Source: a virus. Taken from it: a stretch of DNA of 64,000 bases. The notes under the pieces were generated by a model. It did not search any database. It was not told the DNA's origin and saw only the letters and a list, made by a program, of their open reading frames with translations. The position numbers were made by a program, and so were the translations under genes. Shown piece by piece: positions 6,303 to 53,270 of this stretch (positions are counted from its first letter, which is position 1; the number at the start of each line of letters is the position of its first letter). The stretch covers positions 1-64,000 of IMG/VR virus record IMGVR_UViG_3300023115_001620, one strand, 5' to 3'.

Positions 6303-6310
6303 GGATTAAT

Positions 6311-6958: not shown

Positions 6959-6989
6959 TCACAAGCAGCTATACACGTTTCAAACCTCA

Positions 6990-6996
6990 ATAAATA
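6990..6996 (+). promoter_or_regulatory. T4-like late promoter motif ATAAATA upstream of the P450 cluster
   Basis: Intergenic, 26 nt before ATG 7023. Confidence 0.55.
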
Positions 6997-7022
6997 CGTA
7001 TATTATTTACATAAGAGATAAA

Positions 7023-9906: not shown

Positions 9907-9909
9907 ATT

Positions 9910-10674: not shown

Positions 10675-10675
10675 T

Positions 10676-17317: not shown

Positions 17318-17599
17318 TTAGTTGTACTTTAAATGTGGACAAGCTAACATGAAATAACTCATTTCCTTGTTATCTTCAAATCCAACAGATATACAAATAC
17401 CTTTTTCTTTTTTAGAATTTACCGTAAGGCGTTTGCCTACGTAAAATCTCTTTTTACAATTTTTATTGATCCATTTTATTAAAGATCCTTCTAGATTATA
17501 TGTAGAAGGTATATCTACATATTCAAAATGCGGCGGAGCCACATCTAACCTTCTGATCCTTAATACATCTAATGGATTGATAGTTTTATTTTTTATCAT
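17318..17599 (-). CDS. Hypothetical protein
   Basis: ATGA-coupled to the vWA gene. Confidence 0.65.
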   Translation of the reverse strand: MIKNKTINPLDVLRIRRLDVAPPHFEYVDIPSTYNLEGSLIKWINKNCKKRFYVGKRLTVNSKKEKGICISVGFEDNKEMSYFMLACPHLKYN

Positions 17600-18939: not shown

Positions 18940-18972
18940 TTTACCCTCTACTTTGCTATTTTCTATACATAT

Positions 18973-19001
18973 AGTATAACACTATTTAATAGGATTGTCA
19001 A
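18973..19001 (-). promoter_or_regulatory. Sigma70-type promoter
   Basis: TTGACA-N17-TATACT. Confidence 0.8.
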
Positions 19002-19011
19002 CCAGAAAAAT

Positions 19012-19042
19012 AAAGAACGGGCTCAAAAGAACCCGTTCTTTT
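19012..19042. terminator. Intrinsic terminator-like hairpin after the AAA gene
   Basis: AAAGAACGGG-CTCAAAAGAA-CCCGTTCTTT. Confidence 0.7.
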
Positions 19043-19047
19043 CAACA

Positions 19048-26325: not shown

Positions 26326-26708
26326 TAAGAAACCTCACTCTTTCCTTTGTCTAATGGTACAACATTGATGTATCCTGCTCCCCTATCGGTATCCATACCT
26401 TCTTCTTGCAACATATTATACACAATGTCACGGAACCAACGATCTACAATTTCTTCTTCTGGATCATTTTCAACACCATAACCTGCTTCAATAAGTTGTA
26501 GAATAAAGTATTTGTTCCAGTCTAGCTCAAAGAATCCGTTGCGAACATTGTCTTCGTTTACTTTAACATCAAGTACATTTACCCAAGGCTCTTTGCGTCT
26601 AGTAGCATATTCCTTAGGATCTTTCTTTTTAAGAAGAGCCATTTCCTGCTCTTCTAGTTCTTTTTCTCTCTTACTGATACCAGTAATATCTTTTATAAAT
26701 TTTTTCAT
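26325..26708 (-). CDS. Hypothetical protein
   Basis: 127 aa, coupled; NGFFELDWN. Confidence 0.7.
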   Translation of the reverse strand: MKKFIKDITGISKREKELEEQEMALLKKKDPKEYATRRKEPWVNVLDVKVNEDNVRNGFFELDWNKYFILQLIEAGYGVENDPEEEIVDRWFRDIVYNMLQEEGMDTDRGAGYINVVPLDKGKSEVS

Positions 26709-26839
26709 ATTAAACCTTTTTCTCTTAACCTATTTGCAAGATCTTCAGGATTTTCAACATCTTTTTTTGCATTTATAGGAGCAGTCATAGCACGTTCATG
26801 CTGCTCATTTTTATATTTTTGTTTAGGTGCCCCAGGCAT
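26705..26839 (-). CDS. Possible small protein (3' part of track ORF 26705-27241)
   Basis: Fills the gap between queE and the next gene with ATGA coupling; start uncertain. Confidence 0.35.
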   Translation of the reverse strand: MPGAPKQKYKNEQHERAMTAPINAKKDVENPEDLANRLREKGLI

Positions 26840-27719
26840 TTCCGAATAAGCTGATGTGTAATCTTGGTGTGAAACGCCATCCTCTCGCCATACATTCGTT
26901 CGCCACCTCTTGTACGTTAAGCGTATACTCTTCAGAACGTCCTCCAAGCGGCATAAGATATACTGGACACTCGATGCCGTTTTTGCGATATGCATCAACA
27001 GCCCTACCGGCTTCATCAATATCTGTACTGTCAGCAACAACAAATTTGAGATAGACTGAAGAATTCCGAAGACTAAAATAATCACTAACAACAGCAGGTC
27101 GGATAGCGTCCTCCCAAGATTCTCCACTAACGGAGAGCTTAGGCGAACATGAGAAAGTCCATTTAATTCTGCTCGTAGCATTGATATAGTTTCTAAGATC
27201 GTCGTGTAAAAATTGTGTGCTATTTGTTTCAAACGTGACATTTTTTAAGTCCTTCATTTTAGGATGTTCAAACAACTCTACATAAAGTCGTTGCCAAGCA
27301 AGTAATGGCTCACCGCCTGTAAGAATTAGATGTATATCTTGCCCGTTGTCTTGTGTCCATTTGCCTTCTGGCAGCAAACTAATCAAATGATCTACAACTT
27401 CGTCTACTTCTGCTAGTTTGTTGAAGTCTTTAAATTCTGGATAGATACTTGCATATGTGTCACAGCCTGTATGAATAATGGGCAAGTCTTCAAACTTTTC
27501 TGTTGTATTATGCACATCCTTTGCAATTAGTTCTGCAACTTCAGGATTGTGTCTGATTTTATTTTGTGTTTTTACTGCACGACTAGGTTCATCTCTTCCT
27601 AGTCCAAAGTTCATACAGCGGAAGTTACAACCAAATGTGCGCAAGAATACACTAGGTACTCCTACAAATTTGCCTTCGCCTTGCACACTATAGAATGCTT
27701 CTGAATATCTTAGTTTCAT
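26823..27719 (-). CDS. queE: 7-carboxy-7-deazaguanine synthase (radical SAM)
   Basis: E.FYS.QGEG..VG.PSVFLR..GCN..C, CDT, LTGGEPL, ETN, SPKL; next to folE. Confidence 0.9.
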   Translation of the reverse strand: MKLRYSEAFYSVQGEGKFVGVPSVFLRTFGCNFRCMNFGLGRDEPSRAVKTQNKIRHNPEVAELIAKDVHNTTEKFEDLPIIHTGCDTYASIYPEFKDFNKLAEVDEVVDHLISLLPEGKWTQDNGQDIHLILTGGEPLLAWQRLYVELFEHPKMKDLKNVTFETNSTQFLHDDLRNYINATSRIKWTFSCSPKLSVSGESWEDAIRPAVVSDYFSLRNSSVYLKFVVADSTDIDEAGRAVDAYRKNGIECPVYLMPLGGRSEEYTLNVQEVANECMARGWRFTPRLHISLFGNAWGT

Positions 27720-27826
27720 AATGGCAGCCTTCCTGTATACAATTCAATTCCTAAACCTATCATGCCCATTATAAACACTGCTATAATAAACACTTGTGCC
27801 ATGCGCACTGCAATATAATCACCCAT
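27716..27826 (-). CDS. 36-aa single-TM protein (not in ORF track)
   Basis: MGDYIAVRMAQVFIIAVFIMGMIGLGIELYTGRLPL; TAATG overlap with folE and ATGA overlap with queE. Confidence 0.65.
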   Translation of the reverse strand: MGDYIAVRMAQVFIIAVFIMGMIGLGIELYTGRLPL

Positions 27827-28509
27827 TAGCAACTAAACTCCTGCTGTAGTTTAATATTGTCAAAGAATTCTTTCTTTGTACCTGCATCATCCTTAAATGC
27901 ACCTTTTAGTACAGTTGTCTGTGTAAGTGAACTATGTGCCATAATGCCACGATTCTCACAGCAACCATGTGTTGCTTGAATGTATACACCTAAATGTTCT
28001 GCACCTGTTGCCTTTGCAATCTCACGTGCAATATCATTTGCAAGTTCTTCTTGTAGCGTACCACGGCGAGCGCACCACTGTGCAATACGTGTGTATTTAG
28101 ATAAGCCAATCAATTTGTCTGCGGCAATAATACCAATGTATGCTACACCGCCTACTGGTTGATGATGGTGACTACACATACTTTTTAGTTCTGAACGAAC
28201 AACTAGCATACCTTCGTAGCGTTCGTCTGAGTCATTTGGAAATGCTGTTGCACTTGGAATAGGATCATAACGTCCTGACATGATCTCATTAAAGTACATC
28301 TTAGCAAGACGTCTTGCTGTACCTTGTGAGTTAGGATCATTGTGTCGATCAATTACTAGTGCATCAAGCACACTTTCAAATGCTACTGTAGCATCATCAA
28401 TAAGTTGTTCTTTATCGCCCTTTTGTAGGACTTCTGAAATATTGTCGCCTGCCCAATAGCGAATGTTTGCATCTTGCAAACGGGCTTTAATCTGTTCTGC
28501 TTTGCTCAT
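27826..28509 (-). CDS. folE: GTP cyclohydrolase I
   Basis: SMCSHH, IGLSK..R, LQE, A.HGC...RG. Confidence 0.95.
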   Translation of the reverse strand: MSKAEQIKARLQDANIRYWAGDNISEVLQKGDKEQLIDDATVAFESVLDALVIDRHNDPNSQGTARRLAKMYFNEIMSGRYDPIPSATAFPNDSDERYEGMLVVRSELKSMCSHHHQPVGGVAYIGIIAADKLIGLSKYTRIAQWCARRGTLQEELANDIAREIAKATGAEHLGVYIQATHGCCENRGIMAHSSLTQTTVLKGAFKDDAGTKKEFFDNIKLQQEFSC

Positions 28510-28566
28510 TTAGTTCTCCGAGTTATCGACGTGGATGTCGTATATCATGGTACAAGACATAATAGT

Positions 28567-28595
28567 ATTGTACCATGTATTTAGGTTTATGTCAA
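28567..28595 (-). promoter_or_regulatory. Sigma70-type promoter for folE
   Basis: TTGACA-N17-TACAAT; CTAAATA in the spacer; overlapping inverted repeat. Confidence 0.75.
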
Positions 28596-28600
28596 GTATT

Positions 28601-28807
28601 TTATGCAAAATACTTGTCTAACATATCTAATCTATCATTTGCAGCAGCCATACTATCTAGCTCTTTTTGTATAGTTTCAATAATATCAGAGTGCTCTCCA
28701 ATACCAACTACTTTCTGCATATAAACTTCAATATTAGTTTTATGCAACTCTAACTCTGCTTCAGCATGTTTACGAGCTGCGGTTATCATTTGCTCACGCA
28801 ATTCCAT
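28601..28807 (-). CDS. Small hypothetical protein
   Basis: AAGGA SD; VGIGEHSDI motif. Confidence 0.7.
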   Translation of the reverse strand: MELREQMITAARKHAEAELELHKTNIEVYMQKVVGIGEHSDIIETIQKELDSMAAANDRLDMLDKYFA

Positions 28808-29189
28808 ATCCTTTCCTATAATTTCCTTTGCCCGGAATAACATTTCTAACTCCTCCTACGGGATCCGGACAATCATTATCCCGTCTGAAGATTAAGTGAA
28901 CGTGTGGATACATGCAAGTCTGTCCTGCACTATCTCCCATATTTAGGCCAACATTAAATCCAGTAATATCATTATTTGATGAATAAACATTGTCGTCGCC
29001 CATTGTAACTGCAAACTTAAAACATTTCATTACGTTATCAATGGTATTTGTTTTTGGCACAATTAACATGTGTCCTTCAGTCACTGGAAACTTATCTTTA
29101 AATACAACAAAATCTGTAGTCGTTAATTCAACGTCAGTCCAAGGAGCTCTACCTTCTTTTTGTGCTGCTTCTAAAGTATCAGTTCGCAT
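28794..29189 (-). CDS. HIT-family nucleotide hydrolase
   Basis: D.FPVT.GH.L.VPK, N.G..AGQT..YPHVHLI (first triad His replaced by Tyr). Confidence 0.85.
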   Translation of the reverse strand: MRTDTLEAAQKEGRAPWTDVELTTTDFVVFKDKFPVTEGHMLIVPKTNTIDNVMKCFKFAVTMGDDNVYSSNNDITGFNVGLNMGDSAGQTCMYPHVHLIFRRDNDCPDPVGGVRNVIPGKGNYRKGYGIA

Positions 29190-29210
29190 ATTGTTTTCCT
29201 TATTTTTATA

Positions 29211-29248
29211 ATAGTAACATAAGTTAACCTAAAAGTCAAGCATAAATA
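29211..29248. promoter_or_regulatory. Divergent promoters: sigma70 (-) and late ATAAATA (+)
   Basis: - strand TTGACT-N17-TACTAT (29239-29211); + strand ATAAATA 29242-29248. Confidence 0.7.
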
Positions 29249-29252
29249 CTTT

Positions 29253-29687
29253 ATGAATGATGCATATCGTGTAGCATTTTATGATGTAGTAAAAGAAACG
29301 CAAGCTACTTCAGGTTATAATTTACCTGAACACTTAGAGGCTTACGTTGTAATGCTTTTGGCACATCACATTGACCGTCCTGACTTTTTACCTGAAGATT
29401 CATTTGCACAAGCATATTTAAAACTGAACCGTCCTGCCGATTATACTGCTAAGGAACTTGGCGACACTTGTTTGTTTGTTACAGGTGTATTTCCTACTTA
29501 TGGTAGTAAACACGGTATTAATCGTCGATACTATCAAGATATAGGTATAGGATCATATGAAATGGTAGCAGAGGTTATGCACAAAGATTTGTTTTCACAA
29601 CTTGCTACACATTTTGATTTCCTAAGTAATTTTATTGAAATAACTACGCATTCTGCCAAACAGAAGCATAGTAACCTTTTCCATTAG
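29253..29687 (+). CDS. Hypothetical protein on the opposite strand
   Basis: 144-aa ORF directly after ATAAATA, protein-like composition. Confidence 0.7.
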   Translation: MNDAYRVAFYDVVKETQATSGYNLPEHLEAYVVMLLAHHIDRPDFLPEDSFAQAYLKLNRPADYTAKELGDTCLFVTGVFPTYGSKHGINRRYYQDIGIGSYEMVAEVMHKDLFSQLATHFDFLSNFIEITTHSAKQKHSNLFH

Positions 29688-30375
29688 TATCGCCACCTTC
29701 GTTGTCTATTTCTACACCGTCGTAAACAATCGAAGTAATAGTCTCTTCACCGTTATCATATTCGCTCAGATGAAACTCTAGTTTCTTAGGATCAAACTCT
29801 CCAACAGTTTCGATTACACCTTCAAAGAATGTACCTTTTTCACTAGAATACATTTGTGCAATATAATCCACATCCTCACCGGCATAGCATTCTTGTGAAT
29901 CGTATAGTTCAACTTCCCAGTCAGTTTCGTCGCCTATTTCGTCACACAGTTCTTGAACACCCTTACGAGACATAACTTCACGAACAAAAGGAGCATTGTA
30001 TTCAGCATTCTCAACTTCGTCGATGTCCATGTATGCACTACCAAACTCTGCACCATATTGATGTTCGTATTCTGTAGGTGCCTCATACCAGGATGACTTG
30101 TAATCATCTTTGCCGTAACTAGTTAAAAAGTCTGCTTCAGTTGGAACACTATCAATGTTTTCAAACTCGCATTCGTCCGTACTGTCGTCTACCATATAGG
30201 TAACAAAATCACTGTCACCGTGTTCTTCGCAAACTTGTGACCAAAAGTCGTGTGCTTCTTTCGTAATACTCATGTATGCTGCTTCACCACCATAGCCTGA
30301 GATATGTATACGATAATATCTTGGACCTTTAATTGTTTCTACTAACTCCTGATTTTCTTCACTGGTATAAGTCAT
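29644..30375 (-). CDS. Highly acidic hypothetical protein
   Basis: 243 aa, D/E-rich. Confidence 0.7.
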   Translation of the reverse strand: MTYTSEENQELVETIKGPRYYRIHISGYGGEAAYMSITKEAHDFWSQVCEEHGDSDFVTYMVDDSTDECEFENIDSVPTEADFLTSYGKDDYKSSWYEAPTEYEHQYGAEFGSAYMDIDEVENAEYNAPFVREVMSRKGVQELCDEIGDETDWEVELYDSQECYAGEDVDYIAQMYSSEKGTFFEGVIETVGEFDPKKLEFHLSEYDNGEETITSIVYDGVEIDNEGGDTNGKGYYASVWQNA

Positions 30376-30569
30376 TATTTTATTCCTAGTTCTTTTTTAA
30401 GTTTTACTACCTGTCGTCTTCGTGCATGTATTTCTGCTTGAAGTCCTGAGATTAAATTACCCTTTGCTTTATTTTCGTGTGCTTCTTTGAGATCAGCAAT
30501 CTTACGATTAATACTGTCTTCTAAGCCTGCCAAGTATCGTAATCTATCTTCTCGTTTTGCGTTATCCAT
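30375..30569 (-). CDS. Small coiled-coil protein
   Basis: Coupled ORF. Confidence 0.6.
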   Translation of the reverse strand: MDNAKREDRLRYLAGLEDSINRKIADLKEAHENKAKGNLISGLQAEIHARRRQVVKLKKELGIK

Positions 30570-31125
30570 TTACGTTCTCCCAAGGGTAAACTAACCAAAC
30601 ATCTTCTTCTGCTTTGTTAACTTCATGTACACTATAATCTACCTTGCCATCGAAGTCACTAGACAAGTTGTCTGTAATAGTAGCAAAGCGAACATTACTG
30701 TGCCATACAGTATTCCAACTTTCTGAATTTGGTAAACAACTAGATTTCCAATCTTCTTTTATCCAGTTGAACGTAGCACCAGTGTCGTTAATATCATCAA
30801 CAATCAAAATGTTTTTACGTCTACTAATATCCCAACGGCTTTTATACGTTTCTTGATCATCTAGAGGAACATAGCCAAAAGCATCTTCTGCCATCCAACA
30901 GTTGCTTTCACTTGCTTCACCGTCGTAGTTATCACGTAAACTTACCTTTAATGCTTCGCCACGTACACCTAACATATTACTAAGGATAGTAGCAGGAATG
31001 TTGCCGCCTCGTGTAATACCTACAATGTAGTCAGGCCGCCAGTTGTCTTTATACATCTGTAATACAATATTTGTGCAAGCACGTTCAATGTCTGCCCAAT
31101 CATAATAATGCTTTTTAATTTTCAT
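30562..31125 (-). CDS. Type I phosphoribosyltransferase (Gpt/Hpt-like)
   Basis: IVGITRGG, ILIVDDINDTGAT (PRPP loop), W.VYPWE. Confidence 0.9.
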   Translation of the reverse strand: MKIKKHYYDWADIERACTNIVLQMYKDNWRPDYIVGITRGGNIPATILSNMLGVRGEALKVSLRDNYDGEASESNCWMAEDAFGYVPLDDQETYKSRWDISRRKNILIVDDINDTGATFNWIKEDWKSSCLPNSESWNTVWHSNVRFATITDNLSSDFDGKVDYSVHEVNKAEEDVWLVYPWENVNG

Positions 31126-31564
31126 ATTTTTCTTTTAGGTACTGTTCGTGTTGCACCCATTCTCCTTTGCGTAAAAAACCCCAGTCTCTTAATTTAGGAC
31201 CTGGGATGAATATAGTCCATACATCAACGCCAGGTTCAAGCTCAACACGATGAAGGCTATGACAGCCGGCAAACCGTATCGTGCCTGCGCTACGCCAAAA
31301 TCTACCATTCGGCGTGTGTTCCCAATAACCACCTTTAATGATAAAAGTGATAAAAGGCCAAGGATGGTCATGTAAATCATCTAAATCTCCTTTATGAAAA
31401 TTATGTAAAAATATGTTGAAAGGAAACCATTTCCTATCTTTTAAGAACAAATAGTAACGTGTTAGATACGGCTCGTTTTCGTGCCTGTCCATAATTACTC
31501 TTTTGCGGCCTATTTTTTCTAAAAGTTGTAAAAATTTAAAACGGAATGTCTTCGTCATCTTCAT
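31115..31564 (-). CDS. Cupin-fold protein
   Basis: LH......D..LHDHPW....I..GGY.E, H.V. Confidence 0.7.
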   Translation of the reverse strand: MKMTKTFRFKFLQLLEKIGRKRVIMDRHENEPYLTRYYLFLKDRKWFPFNIFLHNFHKGDLDDLHDHPWPFITFIIKGGYWEHTPNGRFWRSAGTIRFAGCHSLHRVELEPGVDVWTIFIPGPKLRDWGFLRKGEWVQHEQYLKEKYEN

Positions 31565-31946
31565 GATTACCTTTGAAATCTTGATCTACCATTTTATAGA
31601 TAGTTTTAAAATTTTCATATGCTTTTTCAAGTGCAGGATAATGCATACACATTTTTTTGAGCTTTTCCGGAGAGGGCATATGGTCTTCAAATTCAACTTT
31701 ATTGAAAGTTATATTTGTCAAACCGTCAATAGTGCTATCTAATGATATTGTATCGTTAAGTGTGAATGTGCCATCGTTAATATCTACAACAAATGTATTA
31801 TCTGCACTAGAAGTATACATTGAATCTTTGTAAACTAAATTATCAAGGTCTATAGTTTCTACCATCAAGTCAGATAGTGTGATAGAATCTGAACCAGTAA
31901 GAGTTACAATGTCAACATCTGTATCATTATCTTTTGATTGTGTCAT
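31536..31946 (-). CDS. Hypothetical protein
   Basis: GGAG SD; acidic C-terminus EDDEDIPF (SSB-like tail). Confidence 0.6.
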   Translation of the reverse strand: MTQSKDNDTDVDIVTLTGSDSITLSDLMVETIDLDNLVYKDSMYTSSADNTFVVDINDGTFTLNDTISLDSTIDGLTNITFNKVEFEDHMPSPEKLKKMCMHYPALEKAYENFKTIYKMVDQDFKGNHEDDEDIPF

Positions 31947-32970
31947 ATAGTACTGCTCCACTGAAGAATTCTTTGTTTAGTTTAGTGCGTTGCTTGTCTA
32001 ATGCTACAAGAAAATCTTCATAGTTTTCCATATATTCTCTAATTTGTGAAACTACCTCTCCACGGTGTTTGCGATAGCTTGCAAAGTCTTCAGTCCATAC
32101 ACTAGGATATTTAAATTCAGACAGTGCCATTTCACTGTAGCTCAGTCTATCAGGTACCATAGGAATAGCATCTACTAATGCACCTTCATACCAGCTAATA
32201 CCAAGTGTTTCTTGTAAGTTAGAAGAGAACACCATCTTAGCTTCGCCTAGCAAGTTGTGATACTCATTCTTAGTAAGCTCACGTTCTTGACAAACTACAA
32301 ACTCGTATTCAGGAAGTTGTTCTGCTAGATCACGGAAAATATCAACTTGCTTCTCAGGAGCAATACGATGTGGAAAGAGAATAAGATTACGCTTTTCCAT
32401 ACCTTTGTAACTATCTAAACTGTTCTTTAGATACTCCATAGGCCAGCCTACACGATGAGTTTTATCATCATCTATATCTAAACTTTCAGCAAATAGATCT
32501 ATATGAAAGTCAGTTGCATAAAAATTATCATCATAACATTCATACATAGATTGTTCTGCATGACGTACCCAAGGCTTATCGCCAATTAGCCTACCAAGGA
32601 AATCATGAGGATCATAAGAACCAGCATGCCAAAGACCACCGACTCTAATGTCGACCCCAAGGAGCTCAGCCATGTAGCGCAACTGGATAACAGTTGGGTT
32701 CCACGCATCCGTATATAGGAAATAATCTCCATCATTCACTTCACCTTTACAAAACATTTCACCAATCTGTTCAAGTTGTTTTGACTTGTACACGTTAGTT
32801 CCGCCAAAATTAAGAAATGCCCCAGGCGTAGTTGCTTGAGGCGTTTCTCCACCGCTAATAACCTTTACATTTTGATTTGTAGCTCGTTGAAGCTGTAATG
32901 GAAGATGATCCTTCCATTGCTTAGTGTAACGTGTATCTACAGCCTCAATGTCTACAATGTAAATAGTCAT
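31927..32970 (-). CDS. GT-B-fold glycosyltransferase (GT4-like)
   Basis: FPHR...EK, QETLGI...EG (ExxG-x4-E), P.VPDRLSY.E. Confidence 0.75.
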   Translation of the reverse strand: MTIYIVDIEAVDTRYTKQWKDHLPLQLQRATNQNVKVISGGETPQATTPGAFLNFGGTNVYKSKQLEQIGEMFCKGEVNDGDYFLYTDAWNPTVIQLRYMAELLGVDIRVGGLWHAGSYDPHDFLGRLIGDKPWVRHAEQSMYECYDDNFYATDFHIDLFAESLDIDDDKTHRVGWPMEYLKNSLDSYKGMEKRNLILFPHRIAPEKQVDIFRDLAEQLPEYEFVVCQERELTKNEYHNLLGEAKMVFSSNLQETLGISWYEGALVDAIPMVPDRLSYSEMALSEFKYPSVWTEDFASYRKHRGEVVSQIREYMENYEDFLVALDKQRTKLNKEFFSGAVLYDTIKR

Positions 32971-33182
32971 TATCTTTTACCGCTATAATTTTTTCTTGTT
33001 TGATTGCGGTTTTTCATACGCAAGTAATTTTGATATTTTTGATAAGCCTGCCAGTTTTGGTCATGCTTGTTATACAAAGCCTTTTCATTAAAGACTTTGC
33101 CTTCGAAACGACAATAATCACGATAAGCATCTAAGTCGTTAAAAACTTTAGTATACGCTGCACGATTGAATTCGATTGCCAT
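32970..33182 (-). CDS. Hypothetical protein
   Basis: AAGGA SD, 70 aa. Confidence 0.7.
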   Translation of the reverse strand: MAIEFNRAAYTKVFNDLDAYRDYCRFEGKVFNEKALYNKHDQNWQAYQKYQNYLRMKNRNQTRKNYSGKR

Positions 33183-33200
33183 AATGTATTTTTCCTTTAA

Positions 33201-33668
33201 TTATTGTTTAGGATAAAAGATTGAACAGCCATTTTCATTATCTTCAGCTACGCTGATCTCTACAAAGCGGCCGGGATACTTTGCAGCGATTTCTTGATAC
33301 AAGTCATCTGCAATCATCTCACATGACTTGTGATTTAACTCTAGTACGCCTTCAACGTCATAGAGTCGTTGCATCCAGCGTTTAAACTGAATGAATTCAA
33401 TATCGCGATCGTTATGAAATACTTCAATACGAACACGAAAGTGAAAGATATGACGATGTGGAATACCAAGGAATGATACGTCATCCCAATCGCCAGTTGC
33501 TAATTTAGGGTCAGTGTCTGCACCTGGGTACATATGTACACCTTCTTTTGTAAAGGTTACCCAAATGCTTCGTTGAGCTTCGGTTATTGCGTTGTTAATA
33601 TTATCGTTCATTTGTTCTTCTTTCAATCTACGACCCATATAGTCCCAATATGATTCACGTTGTTGCAT
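33201..33668 (-). CDS. queD: QueD/6-pyruvoyl-tetrahydropterin synthase-like T-fold protein
   Basis: H.YP, HRH metal motif, DIEF, SCEMIA; context of folE, queE and TGT. Confidence 0.65.
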   Translation of the reverse strand: MQQRESYWDYMGRRLKEEQMNDNINNAITEAQRSIWVTFTKEGVHMYPGADTDPKLATGDWDDVSFLGIPHRHIFHFRVRIEVFHNDRDIEFIQFKRWMQRLYDVEGVLELNHKSCEMIADDLYQEIAAKYPGRFVEISVAEDNENGCSIFYPKQ

Positions 33669-33674
33669 AGTACT

Positions 33675-33703
33675 AATATACTTTCTTTATAAAGGTTTGT
33701 CAA
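33675..33703 (-). promoter_or_regulatory. Sigma70-type promoter (leaderless transcript likely)
   Basis: TTGACA-N17-TATATT; ATG 33668 begins after a 6-nt gap from the -10 box. Confidence 0.7.
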
Positions 33704-34217
33704 GAGCATATTCACTCCAATCTGTAAACTTTTGATCGTCCATTAGATTGTGCAGTCTGTGACACCATACACCTGGATTGGTTGCACGAAAGTCCTTGTC
33801 ATCAATCTTTAACATAGTATTGTAACCAAATTGTTTAATGTAGGGAATAGGAATACGCAGTTGCGGAATAAACAGATCTGTTTCAACCAGTCCAGTTTCT
33901 AATAGTGCTTCTGCATGATCGAGCGGCACATCAAGTGTACAAGGAATACCTTTGTCAAGAAAATACATTATCATATCTTCCCATTCGTCCCATGTGTCTG
34001 CATCTTCTGGAAAGTTTGTACCTGGACTAAATGAATGATTAGCACCAAAGAAAATATGTTCACATTCTTGTGTTGCAAAATGTTCAAACACTGTTTCAAT
34101 ATTTTGAACACCAGTTACAAATAGTGTTTTCTTTCCATAAACAGGTGTACGTTCTACTTCAATTCCAGTAAAGAACATAACATCGTCATGTTCGCCTGTG
34201 TCATAGTCTCTTTTCAT
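33687..34217 (-). CDS. Hypothetical protein in the deazaguanine region
   Basis: 176 aa; F.G.EVE.TP..G..TLFV, HIFFGANHSF, KIDD.DF...NPGVWCH. Confidence 0.7.
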   Translation of the reverse strand: MKRDYDTGEHDDVMFFTGIEVERTPVYGKKTLFVTGVQNIETVFEHFATQECEHIFFGANHSFSPGTNFPEDADTWDEWEDMIMYFLDKGIPCTLDVPLDHAEALLETGLVETDLFIPQLRIPIPYIKQFGYNTMLKIDDKDFRATNPGVWCHRLHNLMDDQKFTDWSEYALDKPL

Positions 34218-34423
34218 TCTAATCCTAATTGTACAAGTTTAGAGTTAAGTTTATGAATTTCGTCTTTTAGATAAAGTTTCATAGTTTTCATTCTACGAAC
34301 TTCTTCTGATATAGTAATATTATTATATAATATTTCTATGTCACTGTCAAGTTTTCTGTGTCTTTTTTCTAGTTCAACTATACGGTTACGAATTTTGTCT
34401 TCTTCTGAATCATAATTGCTCAT
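34214..34423 (-). CDS. DUF465/YdcH-like coiled-coil protein
   Basis: L...H..LD..I...K..KL.LKDEI. Confidence 0.7.
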   Translation of the reverse strand: MSNYDSEEDKIRNRIVELEKRHRKLDSDIEILYNNITISEEVRRMKTMKLYLKDEIHKLNSKLVQLGLE

Positions 34424-36089
34424 CCACTAGTTCCTCCAACTTAGTTTCATCTAAGATGTCTTCTTCTTGTTCAACAACTTCTTCTACTTCAAATAATGCA
34501 TTAAAAAATGTATTAGCATTTACAGTCTTTTTGCCAATTGCACCTCTAGTACCAGGTATAGCCATCCAAAATTTAGAGTATTCATCTATTTTTTGTAAGG
34601 CTTCGTCTTTATCTGTAATTGCAAAAATTTCATTTACAACATCTCTAAACAGAATTCTATCAAACTTTTCGTCTACTAACATTTTAGGAATCACACCGTT
34701 GTCGTATTGTCTGTTTGCTTCTTGTACAGCGTTTACATGACTCCATACGTTATGACCCATTTGTATAGCATAACTAAATGAGTCCCAGCTAGTCTTTCCT
34801 TCTTTACCTATCTTATTTAGGTCTCCAGGAGCATAAGTGCAAACGTCTGATACTTTGAGTTCGGCAGTAATCGGTGAGTCTTCAAAGTTTTTAAATATCC
34901 CATCTGATATAACAGTGTCTCTAAACAAGCGTTGATCTGTAGCATATTTTTTATCGTCAACTGACGGCACCATACGATACGTCCATTTGCTTCTGTCCTC
35001 AGTTTCGTTCTGAATGTAGATCTGTCCATTCGCGGTTGCCAAGAAAGGACTAGCACAGTCAAAAGTAATAGTAAAGTTTTCATTATAGTTTTTCCGCACA
35101 GCACGTTGAATGTCAGTAAGCAAACAAGCCCACTCTAGTTTAGATGTACCTAGAAAGTGCATTATATCATGCACACCTTTTTCAAGCAAACCGTCAAAGT
35201 GCAGTGTTACAAGTCTTTTTAGTACCAAGTGTACATCGCACATGTTCTGACCACCCATTGCCCAACCATTAAAATGGTTGTCTGGATACTTTGCAGGATC
35301 ACAAAAATCTTTCATCTGTGAATACCAGTCATCTGCTTCGTCGTGTGTTTCGCCTTGTAGAACGTTTAAGAACTTACAGTTGCCGTTACGATGCTTCATC
35401 CAATATTCGTTATTATACTTAGAAGCATTAACAGCATCTTGATATGTACTAATACCGGTCTTTTCTCTACCTGCTGGCGAGCGACAAACCCATGCTGGAA
35501 TATCAAGGATCATACCGTAGTCCATATATGCATCCATCCAACGGAGAACACCGTCACGCTTTTGCTGTGCCGCATCAAGTCTTGCTTGATATTGTTTAGC
35601 ATGATTAATTTTAGTTGTCTTAGGATTACCGTTTTTATCAAGTTTAGGATTGCCATGTTCGTCTAGTTGTTCAACTATTTCAATACCTTTTGCAACAGCT
35701 TCTGCCATACGAGCAGCAACTTCAGGACCATTAGGGTCACGCCATTCGCCTTCCCAAACACCTTTACCAATTTGGAAACCACCTGAGTCGCCAAGTATCC
35801 AACTATTTTCTCTATCTCTATTACGTACCATATCTTCTTTAGGAACATCTTTAGTTGTATCTAAATCAGCGTGTCCTGCTGAATATAGAGTCCACTGGTA
35901 CTGGAATTGACCTTCTTGTTTGTTAAGATAGTTTAAACTCTCTACACCGTGTGTAAAGTTAGATGGAATACGTGACTTATCTACATATTCGTCATAACGC
36001 TGTTTGCCTACGTAAGTGGCATAGAAGCCACTTAGTGCCGGGAGAAACCTTGCGTAATCATTCTGTGTTGCAGTTAAGTCTTTTTGCAT
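34410..36089 (-). CDS. dpdA: TGT-superfamily transglycosylase, probable DNA 7-deazaguanine insertase (DpdA-like)
   Basis: DSGGFQ, LDIP, NVLQG, GWAMGG, HFLG.S, TFDCASP; clustered with folE, queD and queE. Confidence 0.75.
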   Translation of the reverse strand: MQKDLTATQNDYARFLPALSGFYATYVGKQRYDEYVDKSRIPSNFTHGVESLNYLNKQEGQFQYQWTLYSAGHADLDTTKDVPKEDMVRNRDRENSWILGDSGGFQIGKGVWEGEWRDPNGPEVAARMAEAVAKGIEIVEQLDEHGNPKLDKNGNPKTTKINHAKQYQARLDAAQQKRDGVLRWMDAYMDYGMILDIPAWVCRSPAGREKTGISTYQDAVNASKYNNEYWMKHRNGNCKFLNVLQGETHDEADDWYSQMKDFCDPAKYPDNHFNGWAMGGQNMCDVHLVLKRLVTLHFDGLLEKGVHDIMHFLGTSKLEWACLLTDIQRAVRKNYNENFTITFDCASPFLATANGQIYIQNETEDRSKWTYRMVPSVDDKKYATDQRLFRDTVISDGIFKNFEDSPITAELKVSDVCTYAPGDLNKIGKEGKTSWDSFSYAIQMGHNVWSHVNAVQEANRQYDNGVIPKMLVDEKFDRILFRDVVNEIFAITDKDEALQKIDEYSKFWMAIPGTRGAIGKKTVNANTFFNALFEVEEVVEQEEDILDETKLEELVDEQL

Positions 36090-36811
36090 TACTTACTCTG
36101 TGCTGGAAGTATATAATCGTATTTTGCCATTCCTGAATCAACTGTAATCATCATAGCGCCTTGGTCCGAAATGCTCATAGTCAAATCGCCATCTAAATTT
36201 AAGATGCTTTGTACTTGTGCAACAGGCCAACTCCAAGTGTGCTGTAAAGAACCCTCTACATCGTGTTGGAAAACAAACTCGCCTGCGTGTGTGCTTGCAT
36301 CACCAAAGCTAAAAACAAGATTACCATCAACAGTTTTAACATTAAATGTTGGTTCTTCTGAATGTGCAGCACTCATAAGCTTCATACGTGCAATTGCAGC
36401 TACACTAGGCTGTAGAGTAACATTCCAACTTGCACCTTTAAACTTAACGGTCTTAAGTTTTTCTTCAATAATTGCTTTGTTCATAAAGCGGTAATCGTTC
36501 TGGAAGTCACCAGTTGCATTTTCAAAGTGAATGTGTGTTGGAACTGTTTCGCCATTGCGTTCTGCTTGTACAACTTCAATTTTAGCATTGTCTTTGTACT
36601 CAGGGTTTTTCAAATGTAGCGCAAGTTTGTCTAAGTTTGGCATACCAAAAGTGCCTTCTGCCACTTTATGACCTGAAGTTGCGCTTAGAATTACGCTACG
36701 ATCATCTGCCATTGAGTCGATTGTTGTTTCGTCCTCGCCTGTAACTTTAACTAGACTTAGAAAACCAAGTGCATGTGTATGTGCAACAACGTCTTGTAAG
36801 ATATCTTTCAT
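36089..36811 (-). CDS. Probable sliding clamp (gp45/PCNA-like)
   Basis: 240 aa, alternating beta/alpha pattern, C-terminal YDYILPA; near the polymerase; clamp loader in window. Confidence 0.5.
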   Translation of the reverse strand: MKDILQDVVAHTHALGFLSLVKVTGEDETTIDSMADDRSVILSATSGHKVAEGTFGMPNLDKLALHLKNPEYKDNAKIEVVQAERNGETVPTHIHFENATGDFQNDYRFMNKAIIEEKLKTVKFKGASWNVTLQPSVAAIARMKLMSAAHSEEPTFNVKTVDGNLVFSFGDASTHAGEFVFQHDVEGSLQHTWSWPVAQVQSILNLDGDLTMSISDQGAMMITVDSGMAKYDYILPAQSK

Positions 36812-37599
36812 TATACTGTTTCTCCATTGAATAAATCTATTATATTATCATTACCTTCTTTTGTCAAGAAGTTTTGTATTTCGTATTTAGGTTTAAACCC
36901 AAGTGCTTTCATTTTCTCCATGTTTGCACAAGTCCATTCTCTTTCTCCTGGAGTATTTAGGCGAACAGGAAGTTTAGGCGCCAAGTCTTGAACACGCACT
37001 GGACGCCCTGTACCAATGTCAACAACACCATTGACATGTGGTGCATTTATGAGTATTTCAATTGCATCTAGCATATCTTCTAAATGAATGAAATCTCTAT
37101 AGTGCTTTGTTGTATATTCTAATGTACCGTTACGTAGTTTATTAAAGAACATATTCTTTCTAGGACAATTATCTGAGTACACAGTGTGGAAACGCATTCC
37201 TAACATTGTTCCTGCGTTATATCTTTCTGCAAGTTCTTCTAAAATATATTTAGAAGCTGCATAAGGATTTAAATCTGGTTCATAAGCACTTGAACTACTT
37301 GCATAAAGTATCCTTGTACCTTCATAATGTTCAAATAGTCTACGGCTTGCTTCAACATTATTCAACCAATATCCTGCAGGATCTTTAATACTTTCACGAA
37401 CACCGCTTTTGCCAGCAAGGTGAATAATTAAATCAAATTTTTCATTAAACTCACATGTTAATAAATCTTGAGTATTGTTAAGTTTGTCCCTATCCCAACC
37501 ATCTTTTAAGTCTATACCTACAACACTATAGTTTTTTGTAAGACGTGTAAGCAGATTGCTTCCTATGTATCCTCTATGACCTGTCAGCAAAATTTTCAT
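36811..37599 (-). CDS. NAD-dependent epimerase/dehydratase (extended SDR)
   Basis: TGHRGYIG, HLAG, ASSS, YAASK, RF.TVY. Confidence 0.9.
   Translation of the reverse strand: MKILLTGHRGYIGSNLLTRLTKNYSVVGIDLKDGWDRDKLNNTQDLLTCEFNEKFDLIIHLAGKSGVRESIKDPAGYWLNNVEASRRLFEHYEGTRILYASSSSAYEPDLNPYAASKYILEELAERYNAGTMLGMRFHTVYSDNCPRKNMFFNKLRNGTLEYTTKHYRDFIHLEDMLDAIEILINAPHVNGVVDIGTGRPVRVQDLAPKLPVRLNTPGEREWTCANMEKMKALGFKPKYEIQNFLTKEGNDNIIDLFNGETV
36839..36867 (-). promoter_or_regulatory. Perfect-consensus sigma70 promoter inside the epimerase 3' end
   Basis: TTGACA-N17-TATAAT, upstream of GGAG and ATG 36811. Confidence 0.85.
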
Positions 37600-38281
37600 T
37601 AAGTATCCTCCATGTGTCCTTCCAGTGTTTCACATGATAATTGCAACCTTTTTTATTTGCGTTAGCTAAAGGTTGATCATTACCACCTAACTGCATTGCG
37701 TCACCAAAAAATATTAATGTATCATTACTGTCAAAATCATTTACTATTTGACTTTTATCAAAGCCCTTTGGCGAAATGTCAATACCTGTTTCTCCACCTA
37801 CCTTTGCTTCTAAGTATGGAAACATAATATTGAAACTGTGAGCAATTTTATATCGTTCAGCCTTTTTTGTATCATAACGTACATACTGTGCACGTTGTTC
37901 TTTGTCTGCACCTCTGCCAACAACACTAAAATTTACCATTCCTGGGCGATGTTCAAAATGTTGTCCTGTACGCAACGGAAATTCACTTTCAGTTAAACAT
38001 TGGGCAAGGAATGTGTGAGGTGTTTCTTCTAATATCCATTCATTTTGATGTACATTTGTGTCTTGCTCCCAAACATCGTTTCCGTTGCAATTATAAACTC
38101 TCACAGCAAGATTGTAAATAGACAAACCTACTTGTTCAACAGTTTTCATTTTATCAGAACCTGTAACCAAATAACATGAATTATGGCTGGCAAAGTTCTC
38201 AAACCATGCAGCAAAGTCTTTATCTATTTTTCCTCTGCTAGGAGTCAGTGTTCCGTCTACATCAAAAACAAATTTATTCAT
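37574..38281 (-). CDS. HAD-IIB phosphomannomutase (eukaryotic PMM-like)
   Basis: FDVDGTLT, VTGSD, E.R.GM.NFS..GR, GG..GIDI...G.DK, FFGD...GGND. Confidence 0.85.
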   Translation of the reverse strand: MNKFVFDVDGTLTPSRGKIDKDFAAWFENFASHNSCYLVTGSDKMKTVEQVGLSIYNLAVRVYNCNGNDVWEQDTNVHQNEWILEETPHTFLAQCLTESEFPLRTGQHFEHRPGMVNFSVVGRGADKEQRAQYVRYDTKKAERYKIAHSFNIMFPYLEAKVGGETGIDISPKGFDKSQIVNDFDSNDTLIFFGDAMQLGGNDQPLANANKKGCNYHVKHWKDTWRILNENFADRS

Positions 38282-38432: not shown

Positions 38433-38611
38433 TAGGTGTCTTTCTCTTCTTTTTGTTTTTTGCGTTTAGTATAAAAGCCACCTTTGAATTCAATATCTTC
38501 TGTTCTTTTACCACTTACACCTACTGTAATTTTTCCACCATTTTTTATATATTCATCTACTAACTTTTGTTCTTCGTCAGTTAATGATCGACTCACAGGA
38601 TTCATACTCAT
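38432..38611 (-). CDS. 59-aa hypothetical protein (not in ORF track)
   Basis: MSMNPVSRSLTDEEQKLVDEYIKNGGKITVG...; coupled on both sides. Confidence 0.6.
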   Translation of the reverse strand: MSMNPVSRSLTDEEQKLVDEYIKNGGKITVGVSGKRTEDIEFKGGFYTKRKKQKEEKDT

Positions 38612-39024
38612 TTACTTTCTCTTTCTGCTACTCGCTTACGCAAGTCGCTACTGCTGAAGCGGTGATCTCGTTTGTTAAAGTGTAGCTGGATACCCCGCTT
38701 CTTGCAAATATCCTTGCCAGTAAAATCCTTTTCTCTATACTCTTCACCTAATATTCTAACATCAATATGATACATTGTCAAGATATCTTCTAGGTCTTTT
38801 TCAGATGTATATGGAATTATTTCATCTACGTATGCAACTGCTTTGAGTTGTGTGTAACGTTCTACTACAGTTTGTATAGGAGAATTCTTTTCAGGCCTGT
38901 CTACGTTAGGATCTACTTGTAATCCGCATATTAAGTAATCACATTGTTCTTTTGCTTCACGCAACATTTGTACGTGTCCTGCGTGAAGTAAGTCAAATGT
39001 TGAACAAGTAAATCCTACCTTCAT
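38608..39024 (-). CDS. Glycerol-3-phosphate cytidylyltransferase-like (TagD/RfaE)
   Basis: TFDLLHAGH, ER...L....YVDE, R...SSS. Confidence 0.9.
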   Translation of the reverse strand: MKVGFTCSTFDLLHAGHVQMLREAKEQCDYLICGLQVDPNVDRPEKNSPIQTVVERYTQLKAVAYVDEIIPYTSEKDLEDILTMYHIDVRILGEEYREKDFTGKDICKKRGIQLHFNKRDHRFSSSDLRKRVAERESK

Positions 39025-53252: not shown

Positions 53253-53270
53253 AGATATATACACCTTTTA

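Follow-up and report, generated by a model that had tools for sequence, protein, structure and literature searches.

The window analysed here is a stretch of 64,000 nucleotides from a jumbo phage of salt marsh, with a genome of roughly 350 kb. On its minus strand, at 26.8-39.0 kb, it contains a densely packed block of genes within the replication module (Table 1). The open reading frames from 39024 down to 29644, all on this strand, mostly overlap or abut. The module is headed by a family B DNA polymerase, which is 50% identical to the polymerases of phages PA5oct and Phosso. The original prediction placed a 7-deazaguanine DNA-modification locus at 26823-36089. The genes that it named were all found on the minus strand where it had put them, and the identity of only one, the queD-like frame, had to be changed. 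The gene content of that locus therefore stands but its right-hand end does not, since past 36089 the module goes on with a clamp gene, followed by an NDP-sugar cassette that reaches to 39024. The stop of the clamp gene overlaps the start of the gene for a divergent DpdA, and of 80 divergent loci 79 have the clamp gene immediately upstream of DpdA.

Table 1. Genes of the replication-linked module and supporting evidence (positions in the window)
Positions	Strand	Product	Evidence
26823-27719	-	QueE-like radical-SAM CDG (7-carboxy-7-deazaguanine) synthase	phrog_2076 E 5e-51; N-terminus matches TIGR QueE models
27826-28509	-	FolE, GTP cyclohydrolase I	PF01227, 129.6 bits; NF006824 E 1.9e-39
28794-29189	-	HIT-family nucleotide hydrolase or transferase	PF01230 E 2.7e-7
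30562-31125	-	6-oxopurine-type phosphoribosyltransferase (PRTase)	PF00156 E 6.6e-12
31115-31564	-	Cupin ("cysteine dioxygenase" PHROG)	phrog_4786 E 4.6e-39
31536-31961	-	Acidic 141-aa protein, SSB-like C-terminal tip	Sequence, ...EDDEDIPF
31927-32970	-	GT4-type (GT-B) glycosyltransferase	EX7E motif; homologues match PF00534
32970-33182	-	Conserved 70-aa protein between DpdL and glycosyltransferase	80/80 close loci
33201-33668	-	DpdL, QueD-like T-fold protein, proposed CDG decarboxylase	LGIPHRHIF motif; phrog_17812 E 1.7e-30
33687-34217	-	176-aa protein (p176), between DpdA and DpdL	72/80 close, 70/80 divergent loci
34214-34423	-	DUF465 small protein	PF04325 E 1.6e-8
34410-36089	-	Divergent DpdA-type guanine transglycosylase, TGT TIM barrel, no zinc site	AlphaFold2 pLDDT 91
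36089-36811	-	Sliding-clamp-like protein	33% identical to Phosso "DNA polymerase III sliding clamp beta"; 38% to PA5oct EST35_0314
36811-37599	-	NAD-dependent sugar-nucleotide epimerase or dehydratase	PF01370 E 5e-25
37574-38281	-	Phosphomannomutase-type HAD-IIB enzyme	PF03332 E 2e-25; TIGR01484
38608-39024	-	Sugar-phosphate nucleotidyltransferase (RfaE domain II / cytidylyltransferase-like)	PF01467 E 1.1e-15
39516-42188	-	Family B DNA polymerase (head of replication module)	PF00136 + PF03104

Two enzymes of the 7-deazaguanine precursor pathway, FolE and QueE, are encoded in the module. The QueE-like protein has a long insert separating the second and third cluster cysteines and is 31% identical over its full length to QueE of PA5oct and X1. 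As originally noted for the window, QueC, QueF and ArcS are missing, and none of the three was found in the whole 91-kb phage contig that was searched. They are also absent from a 335-kb near-complete relative and from the complete genomes of PA5oct and Phosso, and QueC is likewise missing from two relatives that are about 67% complete. Because near-complete and complete relatives have no QueC either, its absence is not an artefact of a fragmentary sequence. There is also no PF01242 match, and so no QueD, anywhere on the 91-kb contig, which counts against a complete pathway. However, a true QueD is found about 60 kb from the module in relatives, just past the end of this contig, and is present in PA5oct as well. 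The evidence for a 7-deazaguanine DNA-modification locus that works without QueC is good.

The frame originally described as queD-like encodes a homologue of DpdL. Its LGIPHRHIF segment fits the DpdL signature LxxxHRHxF (PMC10516641), and in tblastn the protein is 52% identical to DpdL of phage ACP17 and 31% to gp040 of phiST. The assignment as QueD was rejected on the basis of this signature and homology, together with the lack of PF01242 on the contig. Since the gene is a DpdL, the base made should be 7-deazaguanine (DG) rather than CDG. Of the suggestion that the DNA carries CDG or a further-modified deazaguanine, the deazaguanine DNA locus is retained, while CDG becomes less likely. It must be said against this that the decarboxylase activity of DpdL is a proposal, for the phiST and ACP17 proteins also. 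Cui et al. reported that DpdL and DpdA of phiST or of ACP17 alone yielded no dDG, and suggested that additional enzymes might be required (PMC10516641). In almost every locus DpdL stands between p176 and the glycosyltransferase. The former gave no match in Pfam, NCBIfam, PHROG, PDB or Atlas but has a homologue in ACP17 (E 5.7e-21), and its invariant residues include E20, E22, H54, S62, K137, D139 and D140.

The 559-aa protein is not detected by Pfam. Its fold is that of the TGT enzymes: all of the 50 Foldseek matches listed were TGT, and the comparison with TGT gave VIA Z 19-20 across about 300 residues. The residues D101-S102-G104, D196, H311/G314 and D344 are invariant in the family, and the catalytic motifs align motif by motif with those of a bacterial TGT in hhalign. 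The zinc site is absent, with no conserved cysteine in the family. Among named viral proteins in BFVD, those that match best are phage TGT/DpdA proteins. This enzyme, with every catalytic motif kept, is the most conserved partner in the pathway. The fold and motifs identify it as a divergent DpdA, and its gene context points to DNA as the substrate. It is quite probable that base exchange is how deazaguanine gets into the DNA.

In the glycosyltransferase the EX7E residues E254...E262, together with R202/K207, are invariant. PF00534 is matched by 7 of 9 homologues (best E 8e-12), and ESM Atlas clusters for this protein bear the name GT family 1. However, the protein of the window itself scores 13 bits, which Pfam's threshold excludes, and AlphaFold2 models it poorly (pLDDT 52); both count against the reading proposed below. 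It is 40-47% identical to DpdL-adjacent genes of ACP17, PA5oct and Phosso. The gene lies beside or near DpdL or DpdA in five cultured lineages (PA5oct-like phages, Phosso, ACP17, X1/BUDD and BCSR5), and all 17 phage records with at least 80% coverage of the glycosyltransferase also encode DpdL. A tblastn search of 50,697 phage records gave no T-even phage among the 22 matches listed. The glycosyltransferase was found in 11 of 16 divergent metagenomic DpdA-family lineages, where the genes keep the order DNA polymerase, clamp, DpdA, p176, DpdL, glycosyltransferase, FolE; three DpdA-family lineages without it speak against a general link. In bacteria, too, it adjoins a DpdA of the same family; the five genomes concerned are those of two isolates, one Methylobacterium and one Pseudooctadecabacter, and of three MAGs (Pelagibacterium, Sulfitobacter, Crocinitomicaceae). 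Two of these loci have a mobile-element-like context, far from virion or replication genes. Three have no DpdL, FolE or QueE, and one of these has a neighbouring gene of the YhhQ family, the preQ0 transporter family; this suggests that the glycosyltransferase acts at or after base insertion.

The remaining genes of the module could supply substrates or accessory steps. For the epimerase or dehydratase and the nucleotidyltransferase, the best NCBIfam models are ADP-glyceromanno-heptose 6-epimerase (E 3.4e-16) and heptose 1-phosphate adenylyltransferase (E 1.4e-20), both below cut-off. A homologue of the epimerase directly follows the glycosyltransferase in at least four divergent lineages. The cassette as such is confined to this lineage, as among 80 divergent loci the phosphomannomutase is never found and the nucleotidyltransferase just once, which weakens its connection with the pathway. 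The window also encodes a UDP-glucose dehydrogenase, a P450 and a halogenase-like gene. With such other sugar and tailoring genes present, the cassette could serve another target. The PRTase, found in 76 of 80 close loci, has xanthine/guanine PRT as its best NCBIfam model (E 2.5e-10, below cut-off) and a homologue, EST35_0321, in the PA5oct module (E 1e-9); it may salvage released guanine or activate the deazaguanine base. Of 80 close loci 56 have the HIT gene, as do many divergent ones. The cupin, a possible oxygenase, keeps its place behind FolE in 27 of the 80 divergent loci. The acidic protein occurs in 63 of 80 close loci and has a weak PA5oct homologue, EST35_0319, while family searches with the 70-aa protein gave no match.

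Among the systems closest to this module, that of phage phiST (Cui, Hutinet et al., NAR 2023, PMC10516641) shares FolE, QueD, QueE, DpdL with its signature, a TGT-superfamily transglycosylase, the absence of QueC and a site beside replication genes, and the product of its DpdL/DpdA3 system is 2'-deoxy-7-deazaguanosine (dDG). However, the transglycosylase is 559 aa here and 259 aa in phiST DpdA3, with a marginal alignment (hhalign probability 76%, Foldseek E 0.03), and phiST has MazG instead of the GT4 glycosyltransferase, p176, PRTase and sugar cassette. Acidovorax phage ACP17, Xanthomonas X1/BUDD and Burkholderia BCSR5 have DpdL, the GT4 glycosyltransferase, QueE, FolE and DpdA clustered, ACP17 with p176 in addition. 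The DpdA proteins of these phages, with about 420-450 aa, fall in another clade, related to the 559-aa family with 96% probability in hhalign but not detected by HMMER. The Pseudomonas jumbo phage PA5oct (Wroclawvirus) shares the order DNA polymerase, clamp, DpdA-like, glycosyltransferase, DpdL, PRT-like, QueE, RNase H, with identities of 34% for the DpdA-like protein, 45% for the glycosyltransferase and 60% for DpdL. It also has no QueC, and its QueD lies about 54 kb from the module. It differs in its smaller genome and its host, and in having neither p176 nor the mutase/nucleotidyltransferase/epimerase cassette. Its DNA is restriction-resistant, from which its authors infer a modified G of unidentified chemistry; of the module genes, annotated as hypothetical, only QueE and PTPS are named in that paper (PMC12191111).

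The bacterial Dpd system (DpdA, DpdB, DpdC; dPreQ0, dADG) also inserts 7-deazaguanine into DNA with a DpdA-type transglycosylase, but it uses QueC-made preQ0 and has no glycosyltransferase or DpdL. The partner genes in the bacterial islands described above are unlike those of the Dpd restriction-modification system. The T4 alpha- and beta-glucosyltransferases and other phage DNA glycosyltransferases offer the same concept, in which a GT-B enzyme and a nucleotide sugar decorate a modified base against restriction. However, their acceptors are hydroxylated or hydroxymethylated pyrimidines (5-hmC, 5-hmU, 5-hydroxycytosine), and we know of no purine acceptor described for such an enzyme. Glycosylation of a 7-deazapurine base does have a precedent, since HuiG carries it out with UDP-GlcNAc in huimycin biosynthesis. 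The likeness is one of chemistry: the base also derives from the FolE, QueD and QueE pathway, but the substrate is a free secondary metabolite made from preQ0, not DNA.

We propose, with a probability of about 0.5, that the module is a DpdL-type, QueC-independent system for replacing guanine by 7-deazaguanine in DNA, located in the replication operon, with the glycosyltransferase in the pathway and most likely adding a sugar. GTP would be converted to CDG by FolE, the distantly encoded QueD and QueE, to judge by their homologies. By homology to the phiST and ACP17 proteins, DpdL would turn CDG into 7-deazaguanine, which the divergent DpdA would exchange for guanine in phage DNA. The glycosyltransferase would then most likely attach a sugar to the deazaguanine; the neighbouring mutase, nucleotidyltransferase and epimerase would presumably make or epimerise the NDP-sugar that serves as donor. 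p176 and the cupin may prepare the acceptor, and the PRTase may recycle the released guanine. The acceptor atom is not obvious, because 7-deazaguanine has no hydroxyl group, and this counts against the proposal; N2, O6, C7/C8 or a hydroxyl added by an oxygenase may serve. The original idea of a glycosylated base is strengthened, since a tie between the glycosyltransferase and DpdL or DpdA recurs across many independent lineages, while the sugar itself is still conjectural. The chances that the glycosyltransferase belongs to the deazaguanine pathway are about even. That the final DNA base carries a sugar is a more tentative suggestion from this co-inheritance. If it is correct, the DNA would contain a sugar-bearing purine, of which we found no description in the literature.

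The DNA might instead carry plain dDG, as in phiST and Vibrio phage VP1, with the glycosyltransferase and sugar genes serving virion proteins, the host envelope or another metabolite, for example, and co-located through shared early or replication-phase expression. This is rather unlikely but has real arguments. Phage phiST attains 100% dDG with FolE, QueD, QueE, DpdL and DpdA3 and no glycosyltransferase (PMC10516641), which also counts against our proposal; VP1 DNA is fully substituted with 7-deazaguanine, dDG offers no obvious O-nucleophile, the phage is rich in other sugar genes, and three DpdA lineages manage without the glycosyltransferase. However, the gene stays beside DpdL or DpdA in phages that otherwise share little, including two DpdA clades, and in the bacterial pairs, two of them mobile-element-like, it is remote from virion and replication genes. 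ACP17, which carries it, gave no dDG from DpdL and DpdA alone.

That failure without glycosyltransferase or p176, and the position of both genes around DpdL, would also suit a glycosyltransferase that is needed for biosynthesis while the DNA ends up free of the sugar, for instance through a glycosylated or activated CDG or DG intermediate consumed by DpdL, p176 or DpdA. This is improbable, as the three bacterial loci pair the gene with DpdA where DpdL, FolE and QueE are missing. No deazapurine biosynthetic pathway known to us uses a transient sugar of this kind.

A route through nucleotides has a very small probability. ToyH (toyocamycin) and TubE (tubercidin) are models for PRTase-type conversion of base to nucleotide; here the PRTase would make a deazaguanine nucleotide for the phage polymerase, leaving the TGT-fold protein with a secondary function, be it proofreading, repair or tRNA modification. 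The conserved PRTase and HIT enzyme, the PRTase homologue in the PA5oct module and MazG in one related lineage are in keeping with this, and full G replacement is perhaps easier to imagine at the dNTP level. However, the module revealed no dedicated nucleotide kinase or reductase, the DpdA-type enzyme retains all its catalytic motifs and its rank as most conserved partner, bacterial islands have DpdA and glycosyltransferase without PRTase, and the PRTase is equally explicable by salvage of the guanine freed in base exchange.

Action of the TGT-fold protein on tRNA, which its fold and catalytic motifs alone would permit, can practically be dismissed in view of the missing zinc site, the overlap with the clamp gene inside the replication operon (79 of 80 loci), the clustering with phage DpdA proteins in BFVD and the restriction-resistant DNA of PA5oct, which carries an orthologue. 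As PA5oct combines the shared module with a restriction-resistant G, the predicted sugar is directly testable in that phage.

The locus is a variant of the known DpdL-type 7-deazaguanine system, distinguished by a DpdA clade that escapes Pfam and by a glycosyltransferase (GT) that is inherited together with the pathway. It is real and well delimited. All genes of the module are on the minus strand, and most of them overlap or abut from 39024 down to 29644. They are listed below in the order of transcription.

Genes of the deazaguanine module and its neighbours, in order of transcription
Feature	Coordinates	Strand	Place in order
Family B DNA polymerase	39516-42188	-	First
Sugar-phosphate nucleotidyltransferase	38608-39024	-	After DNA polymerase
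Phosphomannomutase-type HAD enzyme	37574-38281	-	After nucleotidyltransferase
NAD-dependent sugar epimerase	36811-37599	-	After HAD enzyme
Sliding-clamp-like protein	36089-36811	-	After epimerase
TGT-fold protein, 559 aa	34410-36089	-	After clamp
DUF465, then p176 (176 aa, no assigned family)		-	Between TGT-fold gene and QueD-like gene
QueD-like protein (= DpdL), 155 aa	33201-33668	-	After p176
70-aa protein		-	Between DpdL and glycosyltransferase
Glycosyltransferase, 347 aa	31927-32970	-	After 70-aa protein
Acidic 141-aa protein	31536-31961	-	After glycosyltransferase
Cupin, then purine-type PRTase		-	After acidic 141-aa protein
Two variable ORFs		-	Between PRTase and HIT
HIT, then small conserved protein		-	After variable ORFs
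FolE, then QueE	QueE 26823-27719	-	After small conserved protein
2OG oxygenase and 5'-3' exonuclease		-	Further downstream of QueE

The source contig, a viral contig of IMG/VR, has a length of 91 kb and a CheckV completeness of 23%, and the window is its first 64 kb. Relatives of 236 kb are 66-67% complete, and one contig of 335,231 bp sits in a bacterial MAG bin, so that the genome is expected to be roughly 350 kb, that of a jumbo phage. Near-identical DNA was found in 14 salt-marsh metagenome runs, and a megablast search of the locus against 50,697 phage records gave no match. For three salt-marsh runs, RNA libraries gave contigs that are identical to many segments of the locus; as contigs, and with carry-over of DNA possible, they were not accepted as proof of transcription.

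The original prediction described the gene between p176 and the glycosyltransferase as queD-like. The gene is rather DpdL, the proposed decarboxylase of 7-carboxy-7-deazaguanine (CDG) from Cellulophaga phage phiST. It carries the motif LGIPHRHIF (residues 76-84), and the DpdL signature is LxxxHRHxF in place of the CxxxHGH of QueD (PMC10516641). By tblastn, the window DpdL is 52% identical to that of the cultured phage ACP17 (E 3e-32) and 31% identical to phiST gp040 (E 3e-6), and the DpdL profile finds phiST with an E-value of 1e-15. The window protein falls below the Pfam PTPS model. Its genomic context is that of a DpdL, with FolE and QueE in the module, QueD in the relatives and QueC absent. 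A true PTPS/QueD gene is located 54-64 kb from the module in the cultured phage PA5oct, in three related contigs and in the 335-kb contig. The corresponding position is just past the end of the contig studied here, and QueD is seen in the relatives only.

The absence of queC from the window, as first proposed, extends well beyond it. No QueC or Gat-QueC was found in the contig, in four to five related contigs, in the 335-kb contig or in the complete genomes of PA5oct and Phosso, the latter also a cultured phage with a relative of the module. As far as these near-complete relatives show, the possibility that queC lies elsewhere in the genome therefore fails. QueF and ArcS were likewise not found in the contig, the related contigs, the 335-kb contig, PA5oct and Phosso. 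Weak signals for QueC in the relatives, either sub-threshold or limited to the N-terminal PP-loop, come from two PP-loop ORFs of 247 and 315 residues, which match only part of the model. The two ORFs are not related, the window has no equivalent of either, and they were rejected as QueC. In locus L089 (contig G002, 588-3160), each of the two ORFs next to the 247-aa ORF has many cysteine motifs and resembles a radical-SAM/SPASM protein. A PP-loop protein of 177 residues, annotated as 'PAPS reductase family', is located between FolE and the glycosyltransferase in the deazaguanine cluster of Xanthomonas phage X1 (L095, 7332-7865), where it might replace a QueC-like adenylation step.

The TGT-fold protein was undetected in Pfam, PHROG, NCBIfam and PDB sequence searches. 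No PF01702 match was obtained by hmmscan, or in a six-frame search of the contig at E<=1. An AlphaFold2 model was calculated from an alignment of 56 sequences, with homologues down to 27% identity, and has a mean pLDDT of 91. Among the Foldseek matches listed for this model in the PDB, all 50 of 50 are tRNA-guanine transglycosylases, each with a probability of 1.0. Comparison by VIA with bacterial, archaeal and eukaryotic TGT gave Z-values of 19-20 and an rmsd of about 4.5 Å for about 300 aligned residues. The AlphaFold2, Foldseek and VIA results all point to a TIM barrel of the TGT type. The invariant columns of the 56 sequences are D101-S102-G104 (DSGGFQ), D196 (LDxP), H311/G314 (HFLG) and D344 (FDxAS), and G246 and G275 are also invariant or nearly so. 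A profile alignment with a genuine bacterial TGT corresponds motif for motif at DSGGYQ, FDECP, VQGG, GMAIGG, LMGVG and FDCV, and these motifs include the aspartates that serve as general acid/base, in base binding and as nucleophile. A conserved cysteine of the zinc site CxCxxC...H was sought in the 56-sequence alignment and none was found, so this site of TGT is missing in the protein.

The best named viral matches of the model in BFVD are larger phage TGT/DpdA proteins, for example those of Achromobacter phage Motura and Vibrio phage nt-1 (464 aa), with E-values of about 1e-10, while phiST DpdA3 (CGPG_00065; model M4SLA5) is reached with an E-value of 0.03 only. With hhalign, the family gave a probability of 96% to the DpdA of ACP17, and of 76% over 83 columns to phiST DpdA3. 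It forms 968 clusters at 50% identity and has at least 7,710 significant matches, from 8,000 scored candidates, in the 90%-identity collection. The fold, motif, BFVD and hhalign results together indicate, at the level of sequence and predicted structure, that the protein is a member of a distinct and large clade of the DpdA group missed by Pfam.

A protein of this fold could act on tRNA or on DNA. The stop codon of the clamp gene overlaps the start codon of DpdA by one base (36087-36089), and the clamp gene immediately precedes DpdA in all but one of the 80 divergent loci (79 of L122-L201). This arrangement is compatible with base exchange coupled to replication. The context, namely the clamp overlap in a replication operon and the restriction resistance of PA5oct, suggests that the enzyme would exchange guanine in DNA and not in tRNA.

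The match of the 347-aa protein to PF00534 has only 13 bits (E 0.075) against a cut-off of 26.4 bits, and seven of nine homologues match this family, the best with an E-value of 8e-12. The EX7E motif (E254-x7-E262), a hallmark of GT4, and the phosphate-binding residues R202 and K207 of the C-terminal domain are invariant in nine sequences down to 27% identity, and names in ESM Atlas clusters and at JGI likewise indicate a glycosyltransferase. The AlphaFold2 model of this protein has a pLDDT of 52, from a shallow alignment of 84-100% identity, and was left out of the fold searches. Searches of PDB sequences with the GT profile, the DpdA-like protein and the p176 profile gave nothing meaningful, and p176 has no match in the ESM Atlas. 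In the 90%-identity collection the glycosyltransferase search returned at least 8,000 significant matches. The product is predicted to be a glycosyltransferase of the GT4 type, with a presumed GT-B fold of two Rossmann domains. The matches in Xanthomonas PhiXhv and Erwinia Ep032 phages cover 64% of the query only, and in the one locus examined, PhiXhv-15, the GT gene is found with GlmS and a deacetylase and without deazaguanine genes. For these two reasons the matches are not counted in the subfamily.

The main argument is comparative, namely the linkage of the glycosyltransferase to DpdL and DpdA. In the phage collection, DpdL is present in all 17 records with a GT match covering at least 80% of the query (PA5oct-like phages, Phosso, ACP17, X1/BUDD and BCSR5). 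The two genes adjoin or are separated by no more than 3 kb, with QueE, FolE and a DpdA alongside. In ACP17, X1 and BCSR5 the DpdA belongs to another clade, which indicates that the glycosyltransferase goes with the pathway rather than with a single lineage of DpdA. The whole block is kept among 80 close relatives. A further 80 divergent loci represent 16 DpdA clusters that are 30-57% identical to the window protein. The recurrent order in these loci is DNA polymerase, clamp, DpdA, p176, DpdL, GT, FolE, cupin, PRTase and HIT. The glycosyltransferase is found in 11 of the 16 clusters; two clusters end at contig edges, and three are without it. An NAD epimerase follows it directly in at least four lineages. 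In one of the three lineages without the glycosyltransferase, that of locus L131 (and L142, L146, L155 and L156), no GT4 gene is present within 4 kb after DpdL. Instead, MazG is found between DpdA and p176, and the genes upstream of the clamp encode an epimerase and a protein of 669 residues that has an Asp/Arg beta-hydroxylase domain.

The glycosyltransferase also adjoins DpdA of this family in five bacterial genomes, two from isolates (Methylobacterium and Pseudooctadecabacter) and three from MAGs (Pelagibacterium, Sulfitobacter and Crocinitomicaceae). The Methylobacterium genes, which have a serine recombinase on one side and a VapE-type primase on the other, are ordered DpdA, a 201-aa ORF, DpdL and GT. 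In Pseudooctadecabacter a gene of the YhhQ/Vut_1 family, a preQ0-transporter family, precedes GT and DpdA. The island of Pseudooctadecabacter jejudonensis (L107, 938-13513) contains a Dcm methylase, the YhhQ/Vut_1-family gene, GT, DpdA, a 585-aa protein and another GT4, which is of the 'conflict system' type. The island might serve for self-marking or defence by means of a salvaged deazaguanine.

The following mechanism may be proposed. By homology, FolE, QueD and QueE make CDG, and DpdL would strip the carboxyl group to give 7-deazaguanine. The DpdA-like enzyme would then swap this base for guanine in the replicating phage DNA, and the GT4 enzyme would add a sugar. With the mutase, nucleotidyltransferase and epimerase next to it, the module would have a minimal set of enzymes for turning the 6- or 7-phosphate of a host sugar into an epimerised NDP-sugar. 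The best NCBIfam matches of this cassette are ADP-heptose enzymes, but their scores lie far under the cut-offs and are too low to assign a sugar. The acceptor atom might be created by the cupin or by p176. The PRTase resembles xanthine/guanine PRTs and is also found in the PA5oct module; its simplest role would be recycling of the excised guanine to GTP, the substrate of the pathway itself, and a route at the nucleotide level is the alternative.

In this proposal the virion DNA of the phage group, and that of PA5oct, ACP17, X1, BCSR5 and Phosso, would contain a glycosylated 7-deazaguanine, made by exchange of the DpdA type followed by the action of a dedicated GT4, and the same pair of enzymes would self-mark bacterial mobile elements. 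We consider this reading possible, with a probability of about one in three. Two caveats apply: the sugar cassette of three genes is a feature of this lineage only, and the phage has further sugar and tailoring genes at 1-13 kb (UDP-glucose dehydrogenase, P450, halogenase-like and large radical-SAM). The unusual auxiliary genes that cluster on the plus strand at 3964-12697 resemble a pathway for the tailoring of small molecules; they encode a UDP-glucose/GDP-mannose dehydrogenase, a P450-like protein, a tryptophan-halogenase-like flavoenzyme and a radical-SAM protein of 681 residues.

We know of no sugar-bearing purine in any DNA, and a glycosylated 7-deazaguanine, if confirmed, would to our knowledge be the first. 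In the literature consulted, the glycosylated DNA bases (5-hmC and 5-hydroxycytosine) are pyrimidines, and the known 7-deazaguanine modifications of DNA have small C7 substituents only. A sugar on a deazapurine would be a new chemical class of DNA hypermodification. A chemical precedent is HuiG, which glycosylates a free 7-deazapurine base. A full-text literature search found no paper on glycosylated deazaguanine in DNA, and the module is unmentioned in the 'moraphage' jumbo-phage paper and in the paper on glycosylated 5-hydroxycytosine. The only DpdL phage with a known product is phiST, which has no GT and contains 2'-deoxy-7-deazaguanosine (dDG). In the study that defined DpdL, E. coli with DpdL plus DpdA of either phiST or ACP17 yielded no dDG, and a need for further enzymes was considered possible (PMC10516641). 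The authors of the PA5oct study deduce that G is modified and mention QueE and PTPS; the base and DpdA are not identified there (PMC12191111). The proposed sugar would explain both the failed reconstitution and the modified G of PA5oct. The module is very common and is present in cultured phages, one of them a therapeutic candidate against Pseudomonas aeruginosa, so the prediction can be tested cheaply by nucleoside mass spectrometry. The DpdA clade undetected by Pfam also matters for predicting the escape of phages from restriction, CRISPR, glycosylase or END-type defences.

Several other features of the region may be mentioned. In QueE, about 50 residues separate the sequence CNFRC from the third cysteine (CDT), while the known patterns are CX3CX2C and CX14CX2C; the QueE proteins of PA5oct and X1 align with it over the full length. 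An ORF proposed earlier at 26705-27241 is in another frame inside QueE, matches no family and was treated as spurious. The variable spot of the module (29190-30569) contains a plus-strand ORF of 144 residues (29253-29687), an acidic 243-aa ORF and a 64-aa ORF, the latter two found in 5 and 12 of the 80 close relatives, respectively. Of the 80 close loci, 63 encode the acidic 141-aa protein, and the PA5oct module has a gene with weak homology to it. The C-terminus of the 141-aa protein, ...EDDEDIPF, resembles the tip of bacterial SSB, and it may be an adaptor or decoy for SSB-binding proteins. Elsewhere on the minus strand, a DUF2201 metallopeptidase/VWA protein adjoins a MoxR-like AAA ATPase (17596-20133), and a 750-aa ClpB-like double-AAA chaperone is encoded at 51012-53264. 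A 488-aa protein (14651-16117, minus strand) has an N-terminal Mtd_N domain, as in the major tropism determinant of the Bordetella phage diversity-generating system, and may be a receptor-binding protein.
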